Virus record (IMG/VR): IMGVR_UViG_2923360383_000002
Strand: one strand, 5' to 3'
Origin: a virus
Lineage: Duplodnaviria; Heunggongvirae; Uroviricota; Caudoviricetes
Length of the DNA: 35,428 nt
Shown here: piece after piece, positions 3,368 through 30,180 of the stretch
How positions within the stretch are numbered: the stretch's first letter is position 1
Layout: each line of letters begins with the position of its first letter
The notes under the pieces: generated by a model
Told to the model about the DNA's origin: nothing
Seen by the model: only the letters and a program-made list of their open reading frames with translations
Databases searched by the model: none
Program-made: the position numbers and the translations under genes

Positions 3368-6300
3368 TCAGCTAATCGTGATGCCTGCAGTGGCTTTCTT
3401 CATCACAACAACCAGCAAATCGCTGATACTTGCTGTGGGATACCAGCCATTTACCCACCATGCTGATACAGAAAACTCCAGCGTCATGTGGCCGCGACCA
3501 GCAGGCATATCAATAACACCACTGTAAACCAGCGTATTATCCATCGCGGTACGGTTATAAATTTCAGCACCGTTTTTCTTCACTATCAGGCGGCATGACG
3601 AATAAGTATCGCTGTTCTCCCGCTCATGTCTGGCACCGCTGAAAGCCACCGCCGGAATAACAATCTGCCGGTTAAACGGCTGATCGTCATAAACCCTGAC
3701 GGTAATGGTTCCTGATGGCCAACGCTCCGGTGCACGGGAGTCACGGGGGAAAGCCTTACCCACTGTTTTAACGAGATCGCCTTCAATCTGGTTTGCAGAC
3801 AGTTTCCCTCTGATGACACAGTTCTCGTTAATGGTGACATTATTGAGCGTGCCGGTATTCGCCGTGATGGCTCCACTGATATCCGCATTGCGGGCTGTCA
3901 GCCTGCCATCCGGCGTCAGGGAAAACGTCGGAGGATTGCCGGATGACGTGATGCTCACCGCAAACAGTCGCTTCAGGAACACGTCGTTCATGAACAGCTG
4001 ATTCCCCTGCGCCACAAACAGCGGCGTGGTGTTGCCGTTCTCCGGGGTAATCATCGCGATACGGTCCGCCTGCAGCAGAATACTGCTCAGGGTCTGACCA
4101 TCAACATCCTCAATCCCCGCGCCAATCCCGGCCACATAGGGAATACCGTTTTTTGTTTTCTGCACCTTCAGCATATACATGGCATTCAGCTCATTGCGCG
4201 TGTCTGACTGAACCCGCTGGATTTGCTGTATGGTCACGGCCTGGTCACCCAGCTTTTTATCCGTGGTCGAGGTAATTTCACTCCCTTTTTTATCCACGTA
4301 CTGGCGGACCTGTGCTATCTGTCGGGCGTTTTCTGACTGCCCCTGGCTGACAGTCTGTGAGATTTCACTGCTCACCCGGTCCACTTTCTGGCTCACCTGC
4401 GCGATGGCCAGTGTCTGGTCCTCATTCTTTTTCGCAACCAGCTGCGTGAGGCTGTTTTCCGCCTTCCCGATTTTCCGGGTCACTTCTGCGATATCCGTGT
4501 CCATCCGCTGACGGATGTCTTCTTCCAGTTGCGTGACCTCCGTACGCAGCGCTGAAGCATCAATGCGCTCTTTCAGTGCCTGGCCCAGAAGCGTCTCATC
4601 TATCAGCCCCCGGAAAATTTCCAGATACCCTTCACCATCATTGCTGGGCTGCCCGCTGGCTTCCACAAAAGCAGATTTTCCCACCAGGTTGACGCTTCGC
4701 ACGTAAAACCAGAAATCCGTCCCCGGCTTAATCCGGCTCCCCTGGACAGTCCACTGACTGCCGGTCCCCAGATAACGGGCAGATTTTTCCACCTGTGCCG
4801 TGTTCGTGATGCGTTTTTCTGAGAACCAGAATTCAAACTGTACCGTCGGGTCATACACCGCAAGACGCGGGACCGCCGTTATCTGAAAATACCCCGGCGT
4901 CAGCTCAATCCGAGACGGCGCTGCCGGTGCGGCAATCCGGAACGATACCGATGCCGGATCGCCCTGCTGCCCCCACGCATTTACTGCCCGGACTGTCAGC
5001 GTGTACCGCCCCAGCGCCAGTTGCGTGAAGCGGTATGTGGTTTCCGTCGTCCGGGCCGTGCTGACCAGCCGCTCACTGCCGTCATCCGCTGCCACGGTCA
5101 GGCGAAGCATAAAGCTCACGCCCTTCACCACCTTCGGCGTGTCCCAGCGCGCCAGCACCTGATATTCCCCGCTGTCTGCGGTAACTTCGGCGGTCAGGTG
5201 CTGCACCGCTGGCGGCGTGACACCATTCACCGTGCCGCTCTGGTCGCCGTCAAAGTGCGCCCCGTTATCCACGATGGCCTCTTTTGCCGGTACATGCTGT
5301 ACGGCGGTGATGGCATACGTACCGTCGTCATTCTCACGGATACTCACACAGCGGAACAGGCGCTGGCGCAGCGTCGGCAGCTTCAGCCCCCACACGCTGT
5401 ATCCGGCAACGCCGTCAGGAACACGGCTCACTTTCACCTTCACACCGTCGGTGACGGACTGGACCTCCACGCTCACCGGATTACCCTGCCCGTCAACCAG
5501 GCTTATCAGAGTGGTGCCGGAGGATGGCAGCGTGATTTCACGGTCGAGCGTCAGCGTCCGGGTCTGGCTGTTTACCGCCAGCACGCGCCCGCCGGTGCTG
5601 ATACCGGCATAGTCATCATCGCAGATTTCAATGACATCGCCCGGTACATGGCGAAGCCCTTCGGCACCCACGCTGAAGTCCACGGTCTGCGTTTCCAGCA
5701 GTTCCGTTTTAATCAGCCACAGCCCGGCGCGGTGCGCCTGCCCCCGGCTGGTACAGCCAAAGGCATCCATCTTCGTGACGTTACGACCGTAACGGGCAAT
5801 GGCCTGCGTATCTTCAACAAGCTCTGTCGCCGTCTCCCAGCCGTTATCCGGGTCAATCCAGTTCACCTCAACGGCATTATGGCGGTCCTTCAGGGCGCTG
5901 AAGCTGTAGCGGAACGGCGCGCCATCATCCGGCATCACCACATTACTGCGGTTATAGGTCCACACCTTATCCGACGGTCGGTCCTGCACGAACGTCAGCG
6001 TCTGCCCGTTCCATACCGGCATACAACGCATCGCCGAGCAGAAATCACTGAGAACATCCCACGCCTTACGCTGTGTGGTCAGCCAGGCATTACAGGTGAT
6101 GCGCGGCTCCGTGCCACCAAAGCCATCCGGCACCGACTGGTCGCAATACTGGCCGATGACATACAGCGCCCATTTATCCACATCCGCCGCACCAAGACGT
6201 TTCCCCATGCCGTAGCGCGGATGGGTCAGCATATCCCACAGACACCAGGCCATGTTGTTGCTGTATGCTGGCTTAAACGTTCCGTCCCAGATACCGCTGT

Positions 6301-21781: not shown

Positions 21782-22321
21782 ATGGATATTAAAGATAAAA
21801 TCAATACCATTTTGTTATGTGACATTGCCATCCACCTAGGTATCGAAACTGATATTGATCCACAGCTTGTTAAATATGCTGTGTCATCTGGTAATGATTG
21901 GGTTATCAAGGCCGAATATTCACATTTGGATGTTGACGAACCAAGTAAAGAAGATCGTGATTTTGTTACTGCTGTCTTGAATATGTATCGCGGACTTTCC
22001 AATGCTTTCAGGAAACTTAGTGATGACGAGCAAAAAGAATTAGTCCGTGACCATCATCTAAAAATACATGATGGGGCAATTCAGCTCCCAGGTTTCGACG
22101 GTAATAATGAATGCGATTACTTCAGTATCATTGAGGCATATCAGAAAATTGATCGCTTCCCCGAACAGAAACAGCCCATTGCCAATACTCATTCACGTAC
22201 AGAACATCTCTATAACGCAATGCTTGATGAGTTTAAGAAAATTGACGCTGTAAATCGAAGCTGGGATTTATCGAAGGAAGAACTGGCATCCATTCTTTCC
22301 ACAGCTCCACGCAGTTTCTAA
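21782..22321 (+). CDS. Hypothetical protein, possibly YfbU-family-like; plus-strand cargo gene between lysis and packaging modules
   Basis: ATG with AGAGGG RBS; AT-rich; weak pattern resemblance to YfbU family (recollection only). Confidence 0.4.
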   Translation: MDIKDKINTILLCDIAIHLGIETDIDPQLVKYAVSSGNDWVIKAEYSHLDVDEPSKEDRDFVTAVLNMYRGLSNAFRKLSDDEQKELVRDHHLKIHDGAIQLPGFDGNNECDYFSIIEAYQKIDRFPEQKQPIANTHSRTEHLYNAMLDEFKKIDAVNRSWDLSKEELASILSTAPRSF

Positions 22322-22748: not shown

Positions 22749-23231
22749 TTATCTGAGACATTGCTCACGAATGTATAGCTGTGCCCCTTCCAGTTGCTTC
22801 TGCATCGTCATCAACCGTTCTCTGAGGGTGAAATAATCCCGTTCAGCTGTGTCTGCCAGTCTGGGGCTGGTTGCATTATCCACGCTGGTGGGTCCGGTGG
22901 CTTCACGCACGGCTGCGGAGCAACTGGCATTGACCCGCAGGCGCTTACGACCAGCGGCAACATCAGCGCGCAGAGTTTCATTTTCAGCTTTCGCATTGGC
23001 TAATTCTCTCGAGTACTTTGCATCGAGCGCAGCAACATCACGCTGACGCTGCTGCATGTCAGCGATGGTGGCGGTCAGCTGCTTCAGCTCACTGACTTTT
23101 TTATCACGCTGTTCTTTGTAGGTGATGGCGTTATCACGGTAATGATTGACCGCCCACGACAGGCAGACGATGATGCAGATAACCAGAGCATAAATAATCG
23201 CGGCGACTCTGCTCACTGATCTATTCCCCAA
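22749..23231 (-). CDS. Rz: Spanin inner-membrane subunit Rz
   Basis: [30 protein letters not shown] and [16 protein letters not shown] match lambda Rz. Confidence 0.9.
22811..22996 (-). CDS. Rz1: Spanin outer-membrane lipoprotein Rz1 (embedded in Rz, +1 frame)
   Basis: Lipobox LVVSAC and proline-rich [30 protein letters not shown], as in lambda Rz1. Confidence 0.85.
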
Positions 23232-23746
23232 CAGGCTAATGCGCTTTCTTGGTCACGACGAATAACCTGTCCATAGCAGTTATTTGAACGTATGCGGCAA
23301 TCGCGCCCACCATCTTTTATCCACCAGCGAATCGCCTCGCATGCGCCCTTACGATCACCAGCATTCAGCCGCTTATAAAACGTCGATGGAAAACACTTAC
23401 CGGGGCCAATGTTATAGGGACAAAATGACGCGATACCCGCTTTTTGTGGTTCGGTCAGTGGTACTTTAATATTGCGCTCCACCCATGCCAGCGCCTTATC
23501 ACGCTCAATGGCGTTGACCTGGTCGCATTTTTCCTTCGACAGTTTCATACCGGGAAAAACGGGTTTTCCATCCACCATCGTGGCACCCCGACAGATGGTC
23601 CAGATGCCGGAACCATCGCGGTATGCCGTTGTGTGGTTACCTTCTTTTTCATCCAGAAACTGGTCGAGAATATCAGGCGCGGGCGCACCGACGGCAATCA
23701 GTGCCAGAACGGCAGCCGACAGGCCGTATCTGATTTTTGCGTTCAT
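23213..23746 (-). CDS. SAR endolysin (T4-lysozyme-type, phage 21 R-like)
   Basis: N-terminal signal-anchor-release helix ([14 protein letters not shown]) and catalytic E-x8-D-x5-T triad ([16 protein letters not shown]). Confidence 0.85.
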
Positions 23747-23809
23747 GGATATTTATCAGGATTTATCGGTTTCTGCCCACGGACAGGTTTATCTGTTCCG
23801 GTCAGTGAC

Positions 23810-24160
23810 TTAAGGTTGTGATTCCGGAGGAGTCTTCAGAGAACCAGTAATTCTTCCTGGTAGCTTTCCTTTGTAGGTTATCCACACATTCTGCGCCTCT
23901 AAAATTACGGGGCGCGTTTCTGGCAACAGCTCGTCCCCTTCACATAACCCGGCAGCAACATCCAGGAAGACCTGTCTGATGCTCCTTCTGGCTGCTGCCT
24001 CATAAAACTCCAGCGCGGCACCTTCAACACGGTCCAGCGAGATGTCCAGGTCAAAAATTTCACCGTCAAAGCGTTTTTTGTCCCGTAACGCTAAAGTTAC
24101 CGTAACTTTATTCTCAAAATTGCGGATCCCTTTCACAATCAGTTCATAGTTTTGAGTCAT
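23810..24160 (-). CDS. Hypothetical protein (116 aa) inserted between holin and endolysin
   Basis: Own GGGGAGAG RBS 4 nt after the holin stop; no recognisable family. Confidence 0.5.
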   Translation of the reverse strand: MTQNYELIVKGIRNFENKVTVTLALRDKKRFDGEIFDLDISLDRVEGAALEFYEAAARRSIRQVFLDVAAGLCEGDELLPETRPVILEAQNVWITYKGKLPGRITGSLKTPPESQP

Positions 24161-24164
24161 TGAA

Positions 24165-24380
24165 TTACTCTCCCCGTGCAGCCTTACGCTTGTCTTCTCT
24201 GATTTTGAAGTACAGATTTGTCAGATAAGTCAGGAAGCCCAGAACCAGACTCCCCAGTACACCAATCGCAGCCCACTGTGACGGACTGACCTGATCAAGC
24301 CACTGTAAAAACCAGTAGCCAGCACTGCCTGCGGAGGTGCCGTAGGCAATGCCCGTTGAAATTTTGTCCATGGATTTCAT
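24165..24380 (-). CDS. Pinholin, phage 21 S-type (class II holin with dual start)
   Basis: [63 protein letters not shown] is essentially the S21 sequence; GGAGGTG RBS. Confidence 0.9.
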
Positions 24381-24671: not shown

Positions 24672-24746
<75 letters not shown>

Positions 24747-24749
24747 ATA

Positions 24750-24825
<76 letters not shown>

Positions 24826-24827
24826 AC

Positions 24828-24904
24828 TGGACCGCCACCGGGGACTCGAACCTCGCACACTCAACTTAAAGGGTTGACGCTCTTTCCTGATGAGCTAGTG
24901 GCGG
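24828..24904 (-). tRNA. tRNA-like gene; anticodon UUU (Lys) by position, with atypical C33 and mismatches - possibly divergent or a pseudo-tRNA
   Basis: 7-bp acceptor stem (CCGCCAC/GTGGCGG), TTCGAGT T-loop, CCA end; anticodon loop CCTTTAA; T-stem has one mismatch. Confidence 0.45.
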
Positions 24905-24905
24905 T

Positions 24906-24981
24906 TGGTGGCCCTTGCTGGATTTGAACCAGCGACCTGGCGATTATGAGTCGCTCGCTCTCACCACTGAGCTAAAGGGCC
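24906..24981 (-). tRNA. tRNA with CAU anticodon, ileX-like (Ile2 if lysidine-modified, otherwise Met)
   Basis: GGCCCTTTAGCTCAGTGGTGAGAGCGAGCGACTCATAATCGCCAGGTCGCTGGTTCAAATCCAGCAAGGGCCACCA; resembles E. coli ileX more than elongator Met. Confidence 0.8.
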
Positions 24982-25277: not shown

Positions 25278-26159
25278 ATGGAGAAGTCAACTTCCTTTAA
25301 GGTGTTTTATGACGCCAATGATAAAGAATTGTCAAAGCATGCTATTGACGCTGAAACACTTGGTAAATCAATACTTTCCATGACAACTCTTATTAATAAA
25401 GCTGATAGCTTGTTAAATGAGGGCAACAAATCTGTAAAAATTTTAGTCACTGCCCCCATCCAGAAAGGATCTGTGGGTATTGCATATACTGTAGTGCAAC
25501 TCCTACCGCATGCAATTGACGTTCTGCAAACTATCGGGATTGTTGGAACTGTGGGCGCAACAGCTCATGCCACCGCTTTATCGTTAATAAGACAATTAGG
25601 CTCAAAAAAAGTTGTTTCGATTACCAAAAAAGCAGGAACAGATAAGGCTGTTCTTGAATTTGAAGATGGTGAGATTGAATGCTCATCAGCAGTTGCAACC
25701 TTGGTAACTGAGCCAACAATTCGGGATGCGTTGATTTCTGTTGTTCAGGCTCCTTTAGATGGTAAAGACTCTCCCATTTTTAAAATTGTAGATGAGAATG
25801 ATAAAGTTTTGCTCAAGCTTGAAGGAGAGCAAACTGAAGAGATTAAACCCCTTCCCAGAGGGACGCTTTTGACCAAAACAGTTGAAGAAAAAGAGGTTAA
25901 TGTAAAATTTACCCAAGTTAACTTTCATAGTGAGAAGGGGTGGAGGATGGACTACAACCAAGATGAGCACTCCGTACTACTTACAGACTATGAGTTTTTA
26001 GCTAAAGTAAGGCAAGCAGAGGGAACGATCACTAGTGAAGATATGTTTTCTGTGCTTCTAGAAACAACACGTACAACTTCCGCACGAGGACAAACAGAAA
26101 AGTATGTTATCAAGAAAGTACTTCGTCATCGCGTGATTCAAGGGAAAAAATTGATCTAG
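25278..26159 (+). CDS. Hypothetical soluble protein (293 aa), first gene of the plus-strand cargo operon
   Basis: ATG with AAGGA RBS; AT-rich codon usage unlike flanking phage genes; no Walker or other motif recognised. Confidence 0.6.
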   Translation: MEKSTSFKVFYDANDKELSKHAIDAETLGKSILSMTTLINKADSLLNEGNKSVKILVTAPIQKGSVGIAYTVVQLLPHAIDVLQTIGIVGTVGATAHATALSLIRQLGSKKVVSITKKAGTDKAVLEFEDGEIECSSAVATLVTEPTIRDALISVVQAPLDGKDSPIFKIVDENDKVLLKLEGEQTEEIKPLPRGTLLTKTVEEKEVNVKFTQVNFHSEKGWRMDYNQDEHSVLLTDYEFLAKVRQAEGTITSEDMFSVLLETTRTTSARGQTEKYVIKKVLRHRVIQGKKLI

Positions 26160-26174
26160 CTTTGGTAGAAACTA

Positions 26175-26438
26175 ATGATTCAGCAACAGCTTTTACAAAT
26201 CGTTTTTTGGTTGGGGGTGCTTGTAAGTCTCCCGACCTTCTATCGCTTTGTTTATGCTGGTTCCGCGTTGTTGTGGCGTAAAATTTTTCCTACAAAAATC
26301 GTAGAACTAAGGTTTTACAGTGCTGAACGCATGCTTGAAAAAACGATTACTATCCACTTAGATGCTAAAGATGGAAAGAAGATCGTTGAGCTAATTGATG
26401 ATGCAACCGCGCACAGGCAGTCAAATAATGAGCGGTGA
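26175..26438 (+). CDS. Hypothetical small membrane protein (87 aa, one N-terminal hydrophobic helix)
   Basis: Starts 16 nt after the ORF A stop; hydrophobic segment LLQIVFWLGVLVSLPTFY. Confidence 0.5.
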   Translation: MIQQQLLQIVFWLGVLVSLPTFYRFVYAGSALLWRKIFPTKIVELRFYSAERMLEKTITIHLDAKDGKKIVELIDDATAHRQSNNER

Positions 26439-26826
26439 TAAAAAAAGCATTTTAAGTAGTAATTCTGGTCTAACAACAGGCGGGATTGGCGCAGTTCTAA
26501 CTACATTGGTACCACTATTGGCGCCTGACCCTAATAGTGAATGGAGAGCTTTTTTGTATGCCCTCGCCCCATTAGTGTCAGCAATGCTAACCTACATTAT
26601 GTTGTATGTTATCAATCGACATGGACTTGAGTCTCCAGCCGAAGCCGCCCTAAGAAATCGCCTTGAGCGAGATTTAAAAGGTATTGATGAGCAACTGAAA
26701 AGCCCTCATCTAAGCGAGAAATTTAAAGCTGAGCTTATTGCTGATCGGGAAGAAACTGTTAGAAAGATTGTTAACATTGGTAAGAATGTAGAAGTTTTAC
26801 CTATTGAAGTTACTAAAGAAGAATAA
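26398..26826 (+). CDS. Hypothetical membrane protein (about 132-142 aa, two hydrophobic helices plus charged C-terminal region)
   Basis: Overlaps the ORF B 3' end (alternative starts ATG 26398 or ATG 26428); hydrophobic segments GIGAVLTTLVPLLAP and AFLYALAPLVSAMLTYIMLYVI. Confidence 0.5.
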   Translation: MMQPRTGSQIMSGDKKSILSSNSGLTTGGIGAVLTTLVPLLAPDPNSEWRAFLYALAPLVSAMLTYIMLYVINRHGLESPAEAALRNRLERDLKGIDEQLKSPHLSEKFKAELIADREETVRKIVNIGKNVEVLPIEVTKEE

Positions 26827-29493: not shown

Positions 29494-30180
29494 TCACTCC
29501 TTCTCTTCTTTTCCGTAGTGGAGTTGGCCAATTTTGATAAGAGGGCGTCCCTGAGATTTGCGGTGTAGATTGGTATCGCGCAGAGAATACACACAGCCAC
29601 AATATTCCTGCTGATAGAATTTTTCGCGCTTGCTGATTTCAATCATACGGGACGAGCCGCCCTGCTTGCGCCAGTTATAATCCCAGTACACCATACCCGG
29701 ATAATGCGCAACAGCTCGCCGCCCACACTCGTTAACCTGCTGCATATTTTTCCAGCGTGAAATGCCCAGTGAACTACTGATCACACTGAAACCATTTTCA
29801 GCAGCGTACAACGCTGTCCGCTCAAAACGCATGTCAAAACACATGGTACAACGGATCCCCCTCTCAGGCTCCCATTCCATTCCTTTGGCACGTTCAAACC
29901 AGTTGTCGGTGTCGTAATCAGCATCGATAAACGGCACGCCGTGTTGTTCAGCAAAGCGAATATTTTCATCCTTACGAATTAAATACTCTTTCTGAGGATG
30001 AATGTTCGGGTTGTAGAAAAAGATGGTGTAGTCGATTCCCGAGGCCTGAAGCGCCTCCATCACTTCACCGGAACATGGAGCACAGCAAGAGTGCAGTAGT
30101 AGTTTGTTTGCCCCGTTTGGGAGCTCCAATTTAGGCCGTTTGAAATCAGCAATAGTCATAAATATTTTTATTGGGGTCAT
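29494..30180 (-). CDS. DUF208-family protein (QueH-like, epoxyqueuosine reductase family)
   Basis: N-terminal [11 protein letters not shown] cysteine motif and further Cys residues (CTMCFD, CGCVYS) typical of DUF208/QueH as I recall; unverified. Confidence 0.45.

Follow-up and report, generated by a model that had tools for sequence, protein, structure and literature searches.

The 116-aa ORF between the pinholin gene and the lysozyme gene of this prophage encodes a member of the YdfR family (Pfam DUF1327), an assignment that is virtually certain. The gene is probably an accessory rather than a component of the lysis system. In the explanation that fits the data best, to which we give about an even chance, it belongs to the late operon as an optional accessory, and its product is a cytoplasmic protein that binds the catalytic half of RNase E and/or RNA and does not belong to the lysis machinery. 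That RNase E or RNA is the target of the protein, as the analogy with K-12 YdfR suggests, seems possible but somewhat doubtful.

The gene family and the gene order are already known from the Qin prophage of K-12 and from most E. coli genomes; the remaining value lies in the hypotheses on the function of a very common prophage gene. Three results narrow these toward a cytoplasmic role on a host factor or RNA, and away from the lysis machinery: the report of 2026 on RNase E, the occurrence of the domain alone in tail modules of other genera, and the modular C-terminal tail.

Lysis cassette and prophage context

The window, that is, the whole stretch of 35,428 nucleotides that was analysed, is a lambdoid prophage whose head module is HK97-like and whose tail module resembles that of lambda. 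The head, tail, terminase, and lysis modules are all present and the integrase is annotated as frameshifted; the prophage appears to be largely intact. It also encodes a Q antiterminator, RusA, hokD, and dicB, and four tRNA genes are clustered shortly before the holin gene. The ORF predicted originally is present in the ORF list, and its strand, which the prediction did not give, is minus, as is that of all neighbouring genes. The holin gene is located upstream of the ydfR-family gene, and the lysozyme gene, followed by Rz with Rz1, downstream (Table 1). The N-terminus of the pinholin, MKSM, is the dual-start motif of the S21 pinholin/antiholin pair.

Table 1. Positions of the ydfR-family gene, its surroundings in the window, and stand-alone relatives (positions in the last three rows are those of the loci named)
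Feature	Position	Strand	Description	Basis
YdfR-family (DUF1327) gene	23810..24160	-	ATG start, 116 aa + stop	ORF list, PF07041, PHROG 406/2091, RefSeq
Codons 1-72	23945..24160	-	conserved N-terminal domain	similarity to K-12 YdfR, AlphaFold2 model, stand-alone homologues
Codons 73-116 + stop	23810..23944	-	variable C-terminal tail (CEGDELLPETRPVILEAQNVWITYKGKLPGRITGSLKTPPESQP)	breakdown of DNA similarity to K-12 ydfR
Shine-Dalgarno-like GGGGAGAG	24168..24175	-	for ydfR start, in last holin codons	read from sequence
Pinholin gene, class II (S21-type)	24165..24380	-	71 aa, dual start M1/M4	PF04971 E 1e-35
Spacer between ydfR and lysozyme gene	23747..23809	-	63 nt	sequence and consensus scan
RrrQ-type lysozyme gene	23213..23746	-	177 aa, signal-anchor-release type	PF00959 E 1e-24, hydrophobic N-terminus
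Rz i-spanin gene	22749..23231	-	RefSeq start: 23216	PF03245 E 2e-49; PHROG 'Rz-like spanin'
Rz1 o-spanin gene	22811..22996	-	embedded in Rz	PF06085 E 2e-18; PHROG 'Rz-like spanin'
YfbU-family gene	about 21782..22321	+	just beyond lysis cassette
Four tRNA genes	24672..24981	-	between late promoter region and holin gene
First ORF of reversed block	25278..26159	+	293 aa, no Pfam family	PADLOC candidate PDC-S42, full length, E 4e-27
Second ORF of reversed block	26175..26438	+	small, no matches found
Third ORF of reversed block	26395..26826	+	small, no matches found
Epoxyqueuosine reductase (QueH) gene	about 29494..30159 (L001 26795-27460)	-	near hokD
Stand-alone DUF1327 gene, L004	4001-4219
Stand-alone DUF1327 genes, L006, L007, L010	around 4001-4231
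Stand-alone DUF1327 gene, L017	3959-4219

The distances given in the original prediction, 4 nt from the holin stop codon to the ATG of the ydfR-family gene (24161-24164) and 63 nt from its end to the lysozyme start, are exact on the sequence. The ribosome-binding site, which had been called strong, is a credible one, with the GGAG core of GGGGAGAG (24175..24168) located 9 nt before the ATG; "strong" is a generous word for it. Simple consensus scans of the strand of these genes found no promoter- or terminator-like site between the holin, ydfR-family, and lysozyme genes. Therefore, the ydfR-family gene is almost certainly co-transcribed with the lysis genes, in agreement with the co-expression proposed originally. 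In the spacer before the lysozyme gene, no Shine-Dalgarno sequence is recognisable. Six complete E. coli chromosomes carry this cassette of 1.9 kb with 100% identity, and RefSeq labels its genes there 'class II holin family protein', 'YdfR family protein', 'lysozyme', and 'lysis protein'.

Several other features of the prophage should be mentioned. Three of the four tRNA genes are Gly-TCC, Thr-TGT, and Lys-TTT; the fourth, with the anticodon CAT, is assigned to Met by ARAGORN and to Ile by RefSeq. Three ORFs located between the tRNA/lysis region and the gene for the Q antiterminator form a block that is opposite in direction to its neighbours, and the 293-aa protein of this block matches a PADLOC defence candidate. 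The YfbU-family gene is in the opposite orientation to the adjacent lysis cassette. An IS1 insertion adjoins dicB.

The same gene order is found in the Qin prophage of K-12, where essQ (71 aa) is followed, after a gap of 4 nt, by ydfR (b1555, P76160), rrrQ (177 aa), and rzpQ/rzoQ. The holin is 82% identical to K-12 EssQ, and the lysozyme is 94% identical to K-12 RrrQ. Qin is a defective prophage, in contrast to the largely intact one described here. The S protein of phage 21 is 98.6% identical to the holin, including the dual start, whereas R21 is only 34% identical to the endolysin. Because the lysozyme resembles RrrQ so much more than R21, the cassette is of the Qin/RrrQ type rather than strictly of the phage 21 type. 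The original description as a phage-21-type cassette with an inserted gene thus applies to the extra gene, as compared with the S-R order of phage 21, but not to the endolysin.

Both cassettes follow a common logic of holin, then muralytic enzyme, then spanins, and both are preceded by tRNA genes at the same place, two in phage 21 (Asn and Thr) and four here. In phage 21, however, S21 runs straight into R21 without an intervening gene, and R begins at the final base of the stop codon of S. In K-12, the lysozyme start overlaps with the ydfR stop (ATGA), and in the window the two are separated by the spacer. R21 uses the annotated ribosome-binding site at the end of S21, and the equivalent site serves ydfR here. 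This means that the ydfR-family gene occupies the translational slot held by the endolysin gene in phage 21.

Family, fold, and distribution

The 116-aa protein matches DUF1327 (PF07041) over its full length, with 143.7 bits and an E value of 2e-42 (model positions 1-92 of 93, residues 1-112), the gathering threshold being 25 bits. It also matches PHROG 406, over the full length, and PHROG 2091 with E values of about 1e-66, both of which are labelled 'unknown function', and it is identical to the RefSeq entry WP_042068861.1, 'YdfR family protein'. It is therefore not an unrecognised protein, as had been supposed. Residues 1-74 can be aligned with those of K-12 YdfR without a gap, with 60 of the 74 identical (81%) and 96% similar. 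Tyr5 and Tyr53-Glu54, which are conserved in the family, are present. For the first 70 codons, the dN/dS values are 0.26 against K-12, 0.23 against BP-4795, and 0.31 against the PhiR12_2_star homologue, at dS values of up to about 2; the N-domain is under purifying selection. These values and the full-length DUF1327 match establish that the ORF is a true gene rather than a chance ORF. The homology search and the comparison of related cassettes that the original prediction had proposed thus led to this family and to the gene order of Qin. It had also considered that homologues might belong to a common, characterised lysis-cassette gene; the gene is common (K-12 Qin and thousands of E. coli genomes) but not characterised.

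The protein is soluble and mildly acidic, with a calculated pI of 5.2. A Kyte-Doolittle scan found no transmembrane segment, as predicted originally: the maximum mean over 19 residues is 0.75, as compared with 1.72 for the holin and 1.87 for the signal-anchor of the endolysin. None of the core features of a lysis protein, such as a membrane segment, a signal-anchor or lipobox, or a muralytic domain, is present, and no lysis-related family was matched in Pfam or PHROG. Furthermore, no second Pfam family was found even at E values up to 10, and neither the sequence search of the PDB nor the PADLOC defence models gave a match at E values up to 1.

Two domain assignments were considered and rejected. 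Some members of the family have a helix start like 'KKxAK', which had led to the idea of a double-stranded-RNA-binding domain (dsRBD). Membership was rejected: Pfam gave no dsrm match at E values up to 10, and a profile comparison (hhalign) of the aligned N-domains with four dsRBD sequences gave a probability of 0.2%. A weak resemblance to the α-β-β-β-α fold of dsRBDs was retained. A HicB-like antitoxin N-domain, to which a β3-α-β pattern had pointed, was supported by neither a Pfam nor a structure match.

The AlphaFold2 model of the full-length protein is confident only at residues 4-70, and residues 73-116 have pLDDT values below 50. When the N-domain was modelled from a more diverse N-domain alignment, the mean pLDDT was 90.4. 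In this model, three antiparallel strands (residues 5-14, 18-27, and 34-43) are followed by a long helix (residues 50-71). Structure searches turned up no convincing relative, and no entry of the viral structure library reached an E value of 1e-3.

The C-terminal tail is quite different in character. The DNA similarity to K-12 ydfR is lost after about codon 70 and is regained about 14 nt before the lysozyme start. The tail of K-12 YdfR has 33 residues and is predicted to be helical (PMC13232886), whereas that of the present protein has 44 residues, modelled as low-confidence strands; the two are unrelated after about residue 70. At least four types of tail occur among the homologues, in proteins of 103-104, 114-116, 161, and 176-183 aa. 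The tail is thus exchanged between YdfR variants. No Pfam domain was found in the C-terminal extensions of the longer members (161-287 aa). Rare proteins with tandem domains exist in the family. P0190 (176 aa) and P0192 (170 aa) look like tandem copies of the DUF1327 N-domain, with two stretches of each protein matched by the profile; the Pfam scan scored the C-terminal copy only, and weakly.

The YdfR/DUF1327 family is very small. A protein-cluster search (5.8 billion) returned 319 clusters with the single-sequence query and 334 with the profile, and the organisms named among them are nearly all Escherichia or Shigella; a HMMER scan of 1.84 billion representatives returned 87 at an E value of 1e-3 or better. 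Its most divergent members, 72-76 aa in length, stand alone; they correspond to residues 1-72 only and are 25-39% identical to the 116-aa protein. Tyr53-Glu54 is invariant, and Tyr5 nearly so, across these stand-alone homologues.

The stand-alone N-domain genes (72-86 aa) are all located in tail modules, outside lysis cassettes, and three different positions were seen. A Serratia prophage has the gene between that for a gpT-like tail-assembly chaperone (DUF1799) and the tape-measure gene, and siphophage contigs from metagenomes have it between the gpL-like and gpK-like genes. An 86-aa version in Citrobacter portucalensis directly follows the tape-measure gene. A search for related loci with a narrower alignment yielded a single locus. 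In other words, the conserved domain has the behaviour of a late-operon gene that is optional and mobile, and the three positions in tail modules show that its location is not tied to lysis. Each stand-alone gene is followed by a reverse-strand ORF, and the same convergent arrangement is seen after ydfR in some E. coli cassettes (L013 and L016). These reverse-strand ORFs are not homologous to one another and have no Pfam family, and a conserved convergent partner gene was therefore rejected.

DNA similar to ydfR is present in 4348 of the 5426 complete E. coli genomes (about 80%), at up to 10 places per genome, and in 1903 of the 5426 a copy covers at least 80% of the present allele. Among 50,697 phage records, 101 have a YdfR homologue and 438 an S21-type holin. 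The gene is not found wherever this type of cassette occurs: phage 21 and about three quarters of the deposited phages with this type of holin do not carry it. Among Shiga-toxin phages, classified by record name, the gene is a lineage marker. Homologues were found in 41 Stx1a-converting phages and S21-type holins in 47; the corresponding numbers are 15 and 17 for Stx2c, and 2 and 124 for Stx2a. In other words, the gene is carried by most Stx1a and Stx2c phages and by few Stx2a phages.

In every Escherichia locus inspected (K-12, 94EC, O157:H7 F8952, HM670, SCU-313, BP-4795, and PhiR12_2_star), the holin stop codon is followed by 4 nt, ydfR, and then the lysozyme gene, and the coordinates of six further phage records agree on the position of ydfR. 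Some variants of the cassette have an additional reverse-strand ORF between ydfR and the lysozyme gene, and BP-4795 has further genes, such as ant, between R and Rz. This means that Escherichia lysis cassettes of this type tolerate insertions.

Reports on K-12 YdfR and possible functions

A search of the literature library for the function of DUF1327 found no paper that discusses it. The one informative study is that of Göpel et al. on the K-12 protein (RNA Biol 2026, PMC13232886). Residues 1-72 of K-12 YdfR, to which the conserved N-domain of the present protein corresponds, were recovered three times in a two-hybrid screen, and full-length YdfR gave a two-hybrid signal with RNase E residues 1-597. 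In addition, Strep-tagged YdfR was eluted from lysates together with FLAG-tagged RNase E 1-598, and unusually large amounts of DNase-resistant nucleic acid co-purified with YdfR (PMC13232886). The lysates were prepared without nuclease treatment (PMC13232886), and the contact between YdfR and RNase E may therefore be bridged by RNA. A YdfR fusion with a short linker failed to interact with full-length RNase E. Overexpression of YdfR caused no growth defect and changed few transcripts, and ydfR was essentially silent in standard growth, with almost no reads (PMC13232886). The absence of a growth defect argues against a lytic or toxic activity.

We propose the following course of events. Transcripts from the Q-dependent late promoter would cover the ydfR-family gene along with the lysis genes, and its translation would start from the ribosome-binding site in the last codons of the pinholin gene. 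The working part of the protein would be the conserved N-domain of about 72 residues, to which the exchangeable tail is attached. Late in infection, the cytoplasmic protein would bind the catalytic N-terminal half of RNase E and/or RNA, and this binding would modulate the turnover of RNA, for example of the long late transcript. By analogy, the present allele might behave like K-12 YdfR toward RNase E or RNA, with a consequence for phage RNA or lysis. In the most specific form of this model, the N-domain serves temperate phages as a modulator of RNase E, on whose catalytic half it acts either directly or via bound RNA; made with the lysis genes, it protects or reshapes the long late transcript or sets the ratio of holin to endolysin expression. 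This form is rather unlikely to be correct in full.

Several points stand against RNase E or RNA as the target. The evidence for binding concerns another allele and comes from the two-hybrid assays and the co-purification without nuclease treatment, so that it may reflect bridging by RNA. The very few transcripts changed on overexpression and the failure of the short-linker fusion also count against this target, as do the acidic character of the protein and the fact that no RNA-binding motif is recognisable in it.

The original prediction had named a lysis regulator or cargo as the possible roles, and of these cargo fits better: the gene is absent from most cassettes with the same holin, and its distant relatives are in tail modules. 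A regulator of lysis timing, which might bind the cytoplasmic tail of the pinholin or antiholin or control the amount of the SAR endolysin, thereby adjusting the time of depolarisation, is unlikely. The gene does lie 4 nt after the stop codon of an S21-type holin and before the lysozyme gene at all the Escherichia loci, and this constant place right after the pinholin gene could reflect a functional link with lysis instead of one inherited insertion site. It also holds the translational slot of R21 and separates from that slot a lysozyme gene for which no Shine-Dalgarno sequence is visible here. Nevertheless, lysis proceeds without ydfR in phage 21 and in about three quarters of the deposited phages with the same type of holin, homologues of the conserved domain are found far from lysis genes, and K-12 YdfR causes no growth defect on overexpression. 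In a high-throughput CPRG screen for envelope defects, the K-12 ydfR deletion was positive, i.e. envelope-leaky, in the supplementary tables only (PMC3879167). This phenotype would suit a lysis regulator, but the result is unvalidated, and we suspect that the resistance cassette was polar on rrrQ, which follows ydfR.

Cargo might also mean a gene that benefits the lysogen or serves in conflicts, through superinfection exclusion, anti-phage defence, or anti-defence, while riding in the late operon. The patchy, lineage-specific distribution with up to 10 copies per genome is consistent with such a role, as are the C-terminal modules, which vary as they often do in conflict genes, the location of homologues at insertion hot spots of tail modules beside unrelated reverse-strand ORFs, and the candidate defence gene (PDC-S42) nearby in the same prophage. 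We consider it quite unlikely, however. No PADLOC model matched at E values up to 1, and the gene has no promoter of its own. Together with the near silence of K-12 ydfR in standard growth (PMC13232886), this makes production in lysogens unlikely, although exclusion or defence would require it; a role in anti-defence during the lytic cycle is untouched by this objection. It is highly improbable that the protein is dispensable, the ORF being either a translated spacer that uncouples the translation of lysozyme from that of holin or a selfish hitch-hiker between recombination targets. The C-terminal half is freely replaced, many members in the databases are truncated, frameshifted, or fused, and the conserved holin and lysozyme genes on either side could spread ydfR by homologous recombination. 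But purifying selection acts on the N-domain (dN/dS of 0.23-0.31, with dS reaching about 2), the domain is retained with its invariant Tyr-Glu pair at 25-39% identity in stand-alone proteins of other genera, it folds confidently in the model, and a binding partner has been reported (PMC13232886).

Comparison with morons and phage modulators of RNase E

An accessory of the late operon that acts on RNase E or RNA has two kinds of counterpart among phage genes. Lambdoid phages carry morons, for example bor, lom, and, in the tail module, HK97 gp15; the classical moron is flanked by a promoter and a terminator of its own and is atypical in base composition. Like them, the ydfR-family gene is optional, and YdfR/DUF1327 genes are found at varying positions between conserved late genes, the homologues in tail modules being at insertion points like that of gp15. 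Unlike classical morons, it has no promoter or terminator of its own, and its expression apparently goes with that of the late operon rather than taking place in the lysogen. A moron-like base composition was rejected as well: the GC content of ydfR is 0.45-0.52, like that of its neighbours.

Modulators of RNase E are known from phages, namely T4 Srd, T7 gp0.7, and phiKZ Dip, and T4 Srd is reported to bind the N-terminal half of the enzyme. These proteins are dissimilar to YdfR in sequence, and no family relationship is claimed. Their phages are virulent, and their effects on RNA decay have been demonstrated; YdfR is likened to them by its reported binding. The likeness is that of small phage proteins directed to the RNase E of the host, and the N-terminal half is the reported site for T4 Srd as well as for K-12 YdfR (PMC13232886). 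If this reading is true, YdfR would be a widespread factor for the takeover of host RNA decay, carried by about 80% of E. coli genomes and equipped with exchangeable C-terminal modules, and the few phage proteins that are directed against RNase E would be joined by an example from temperate phages.
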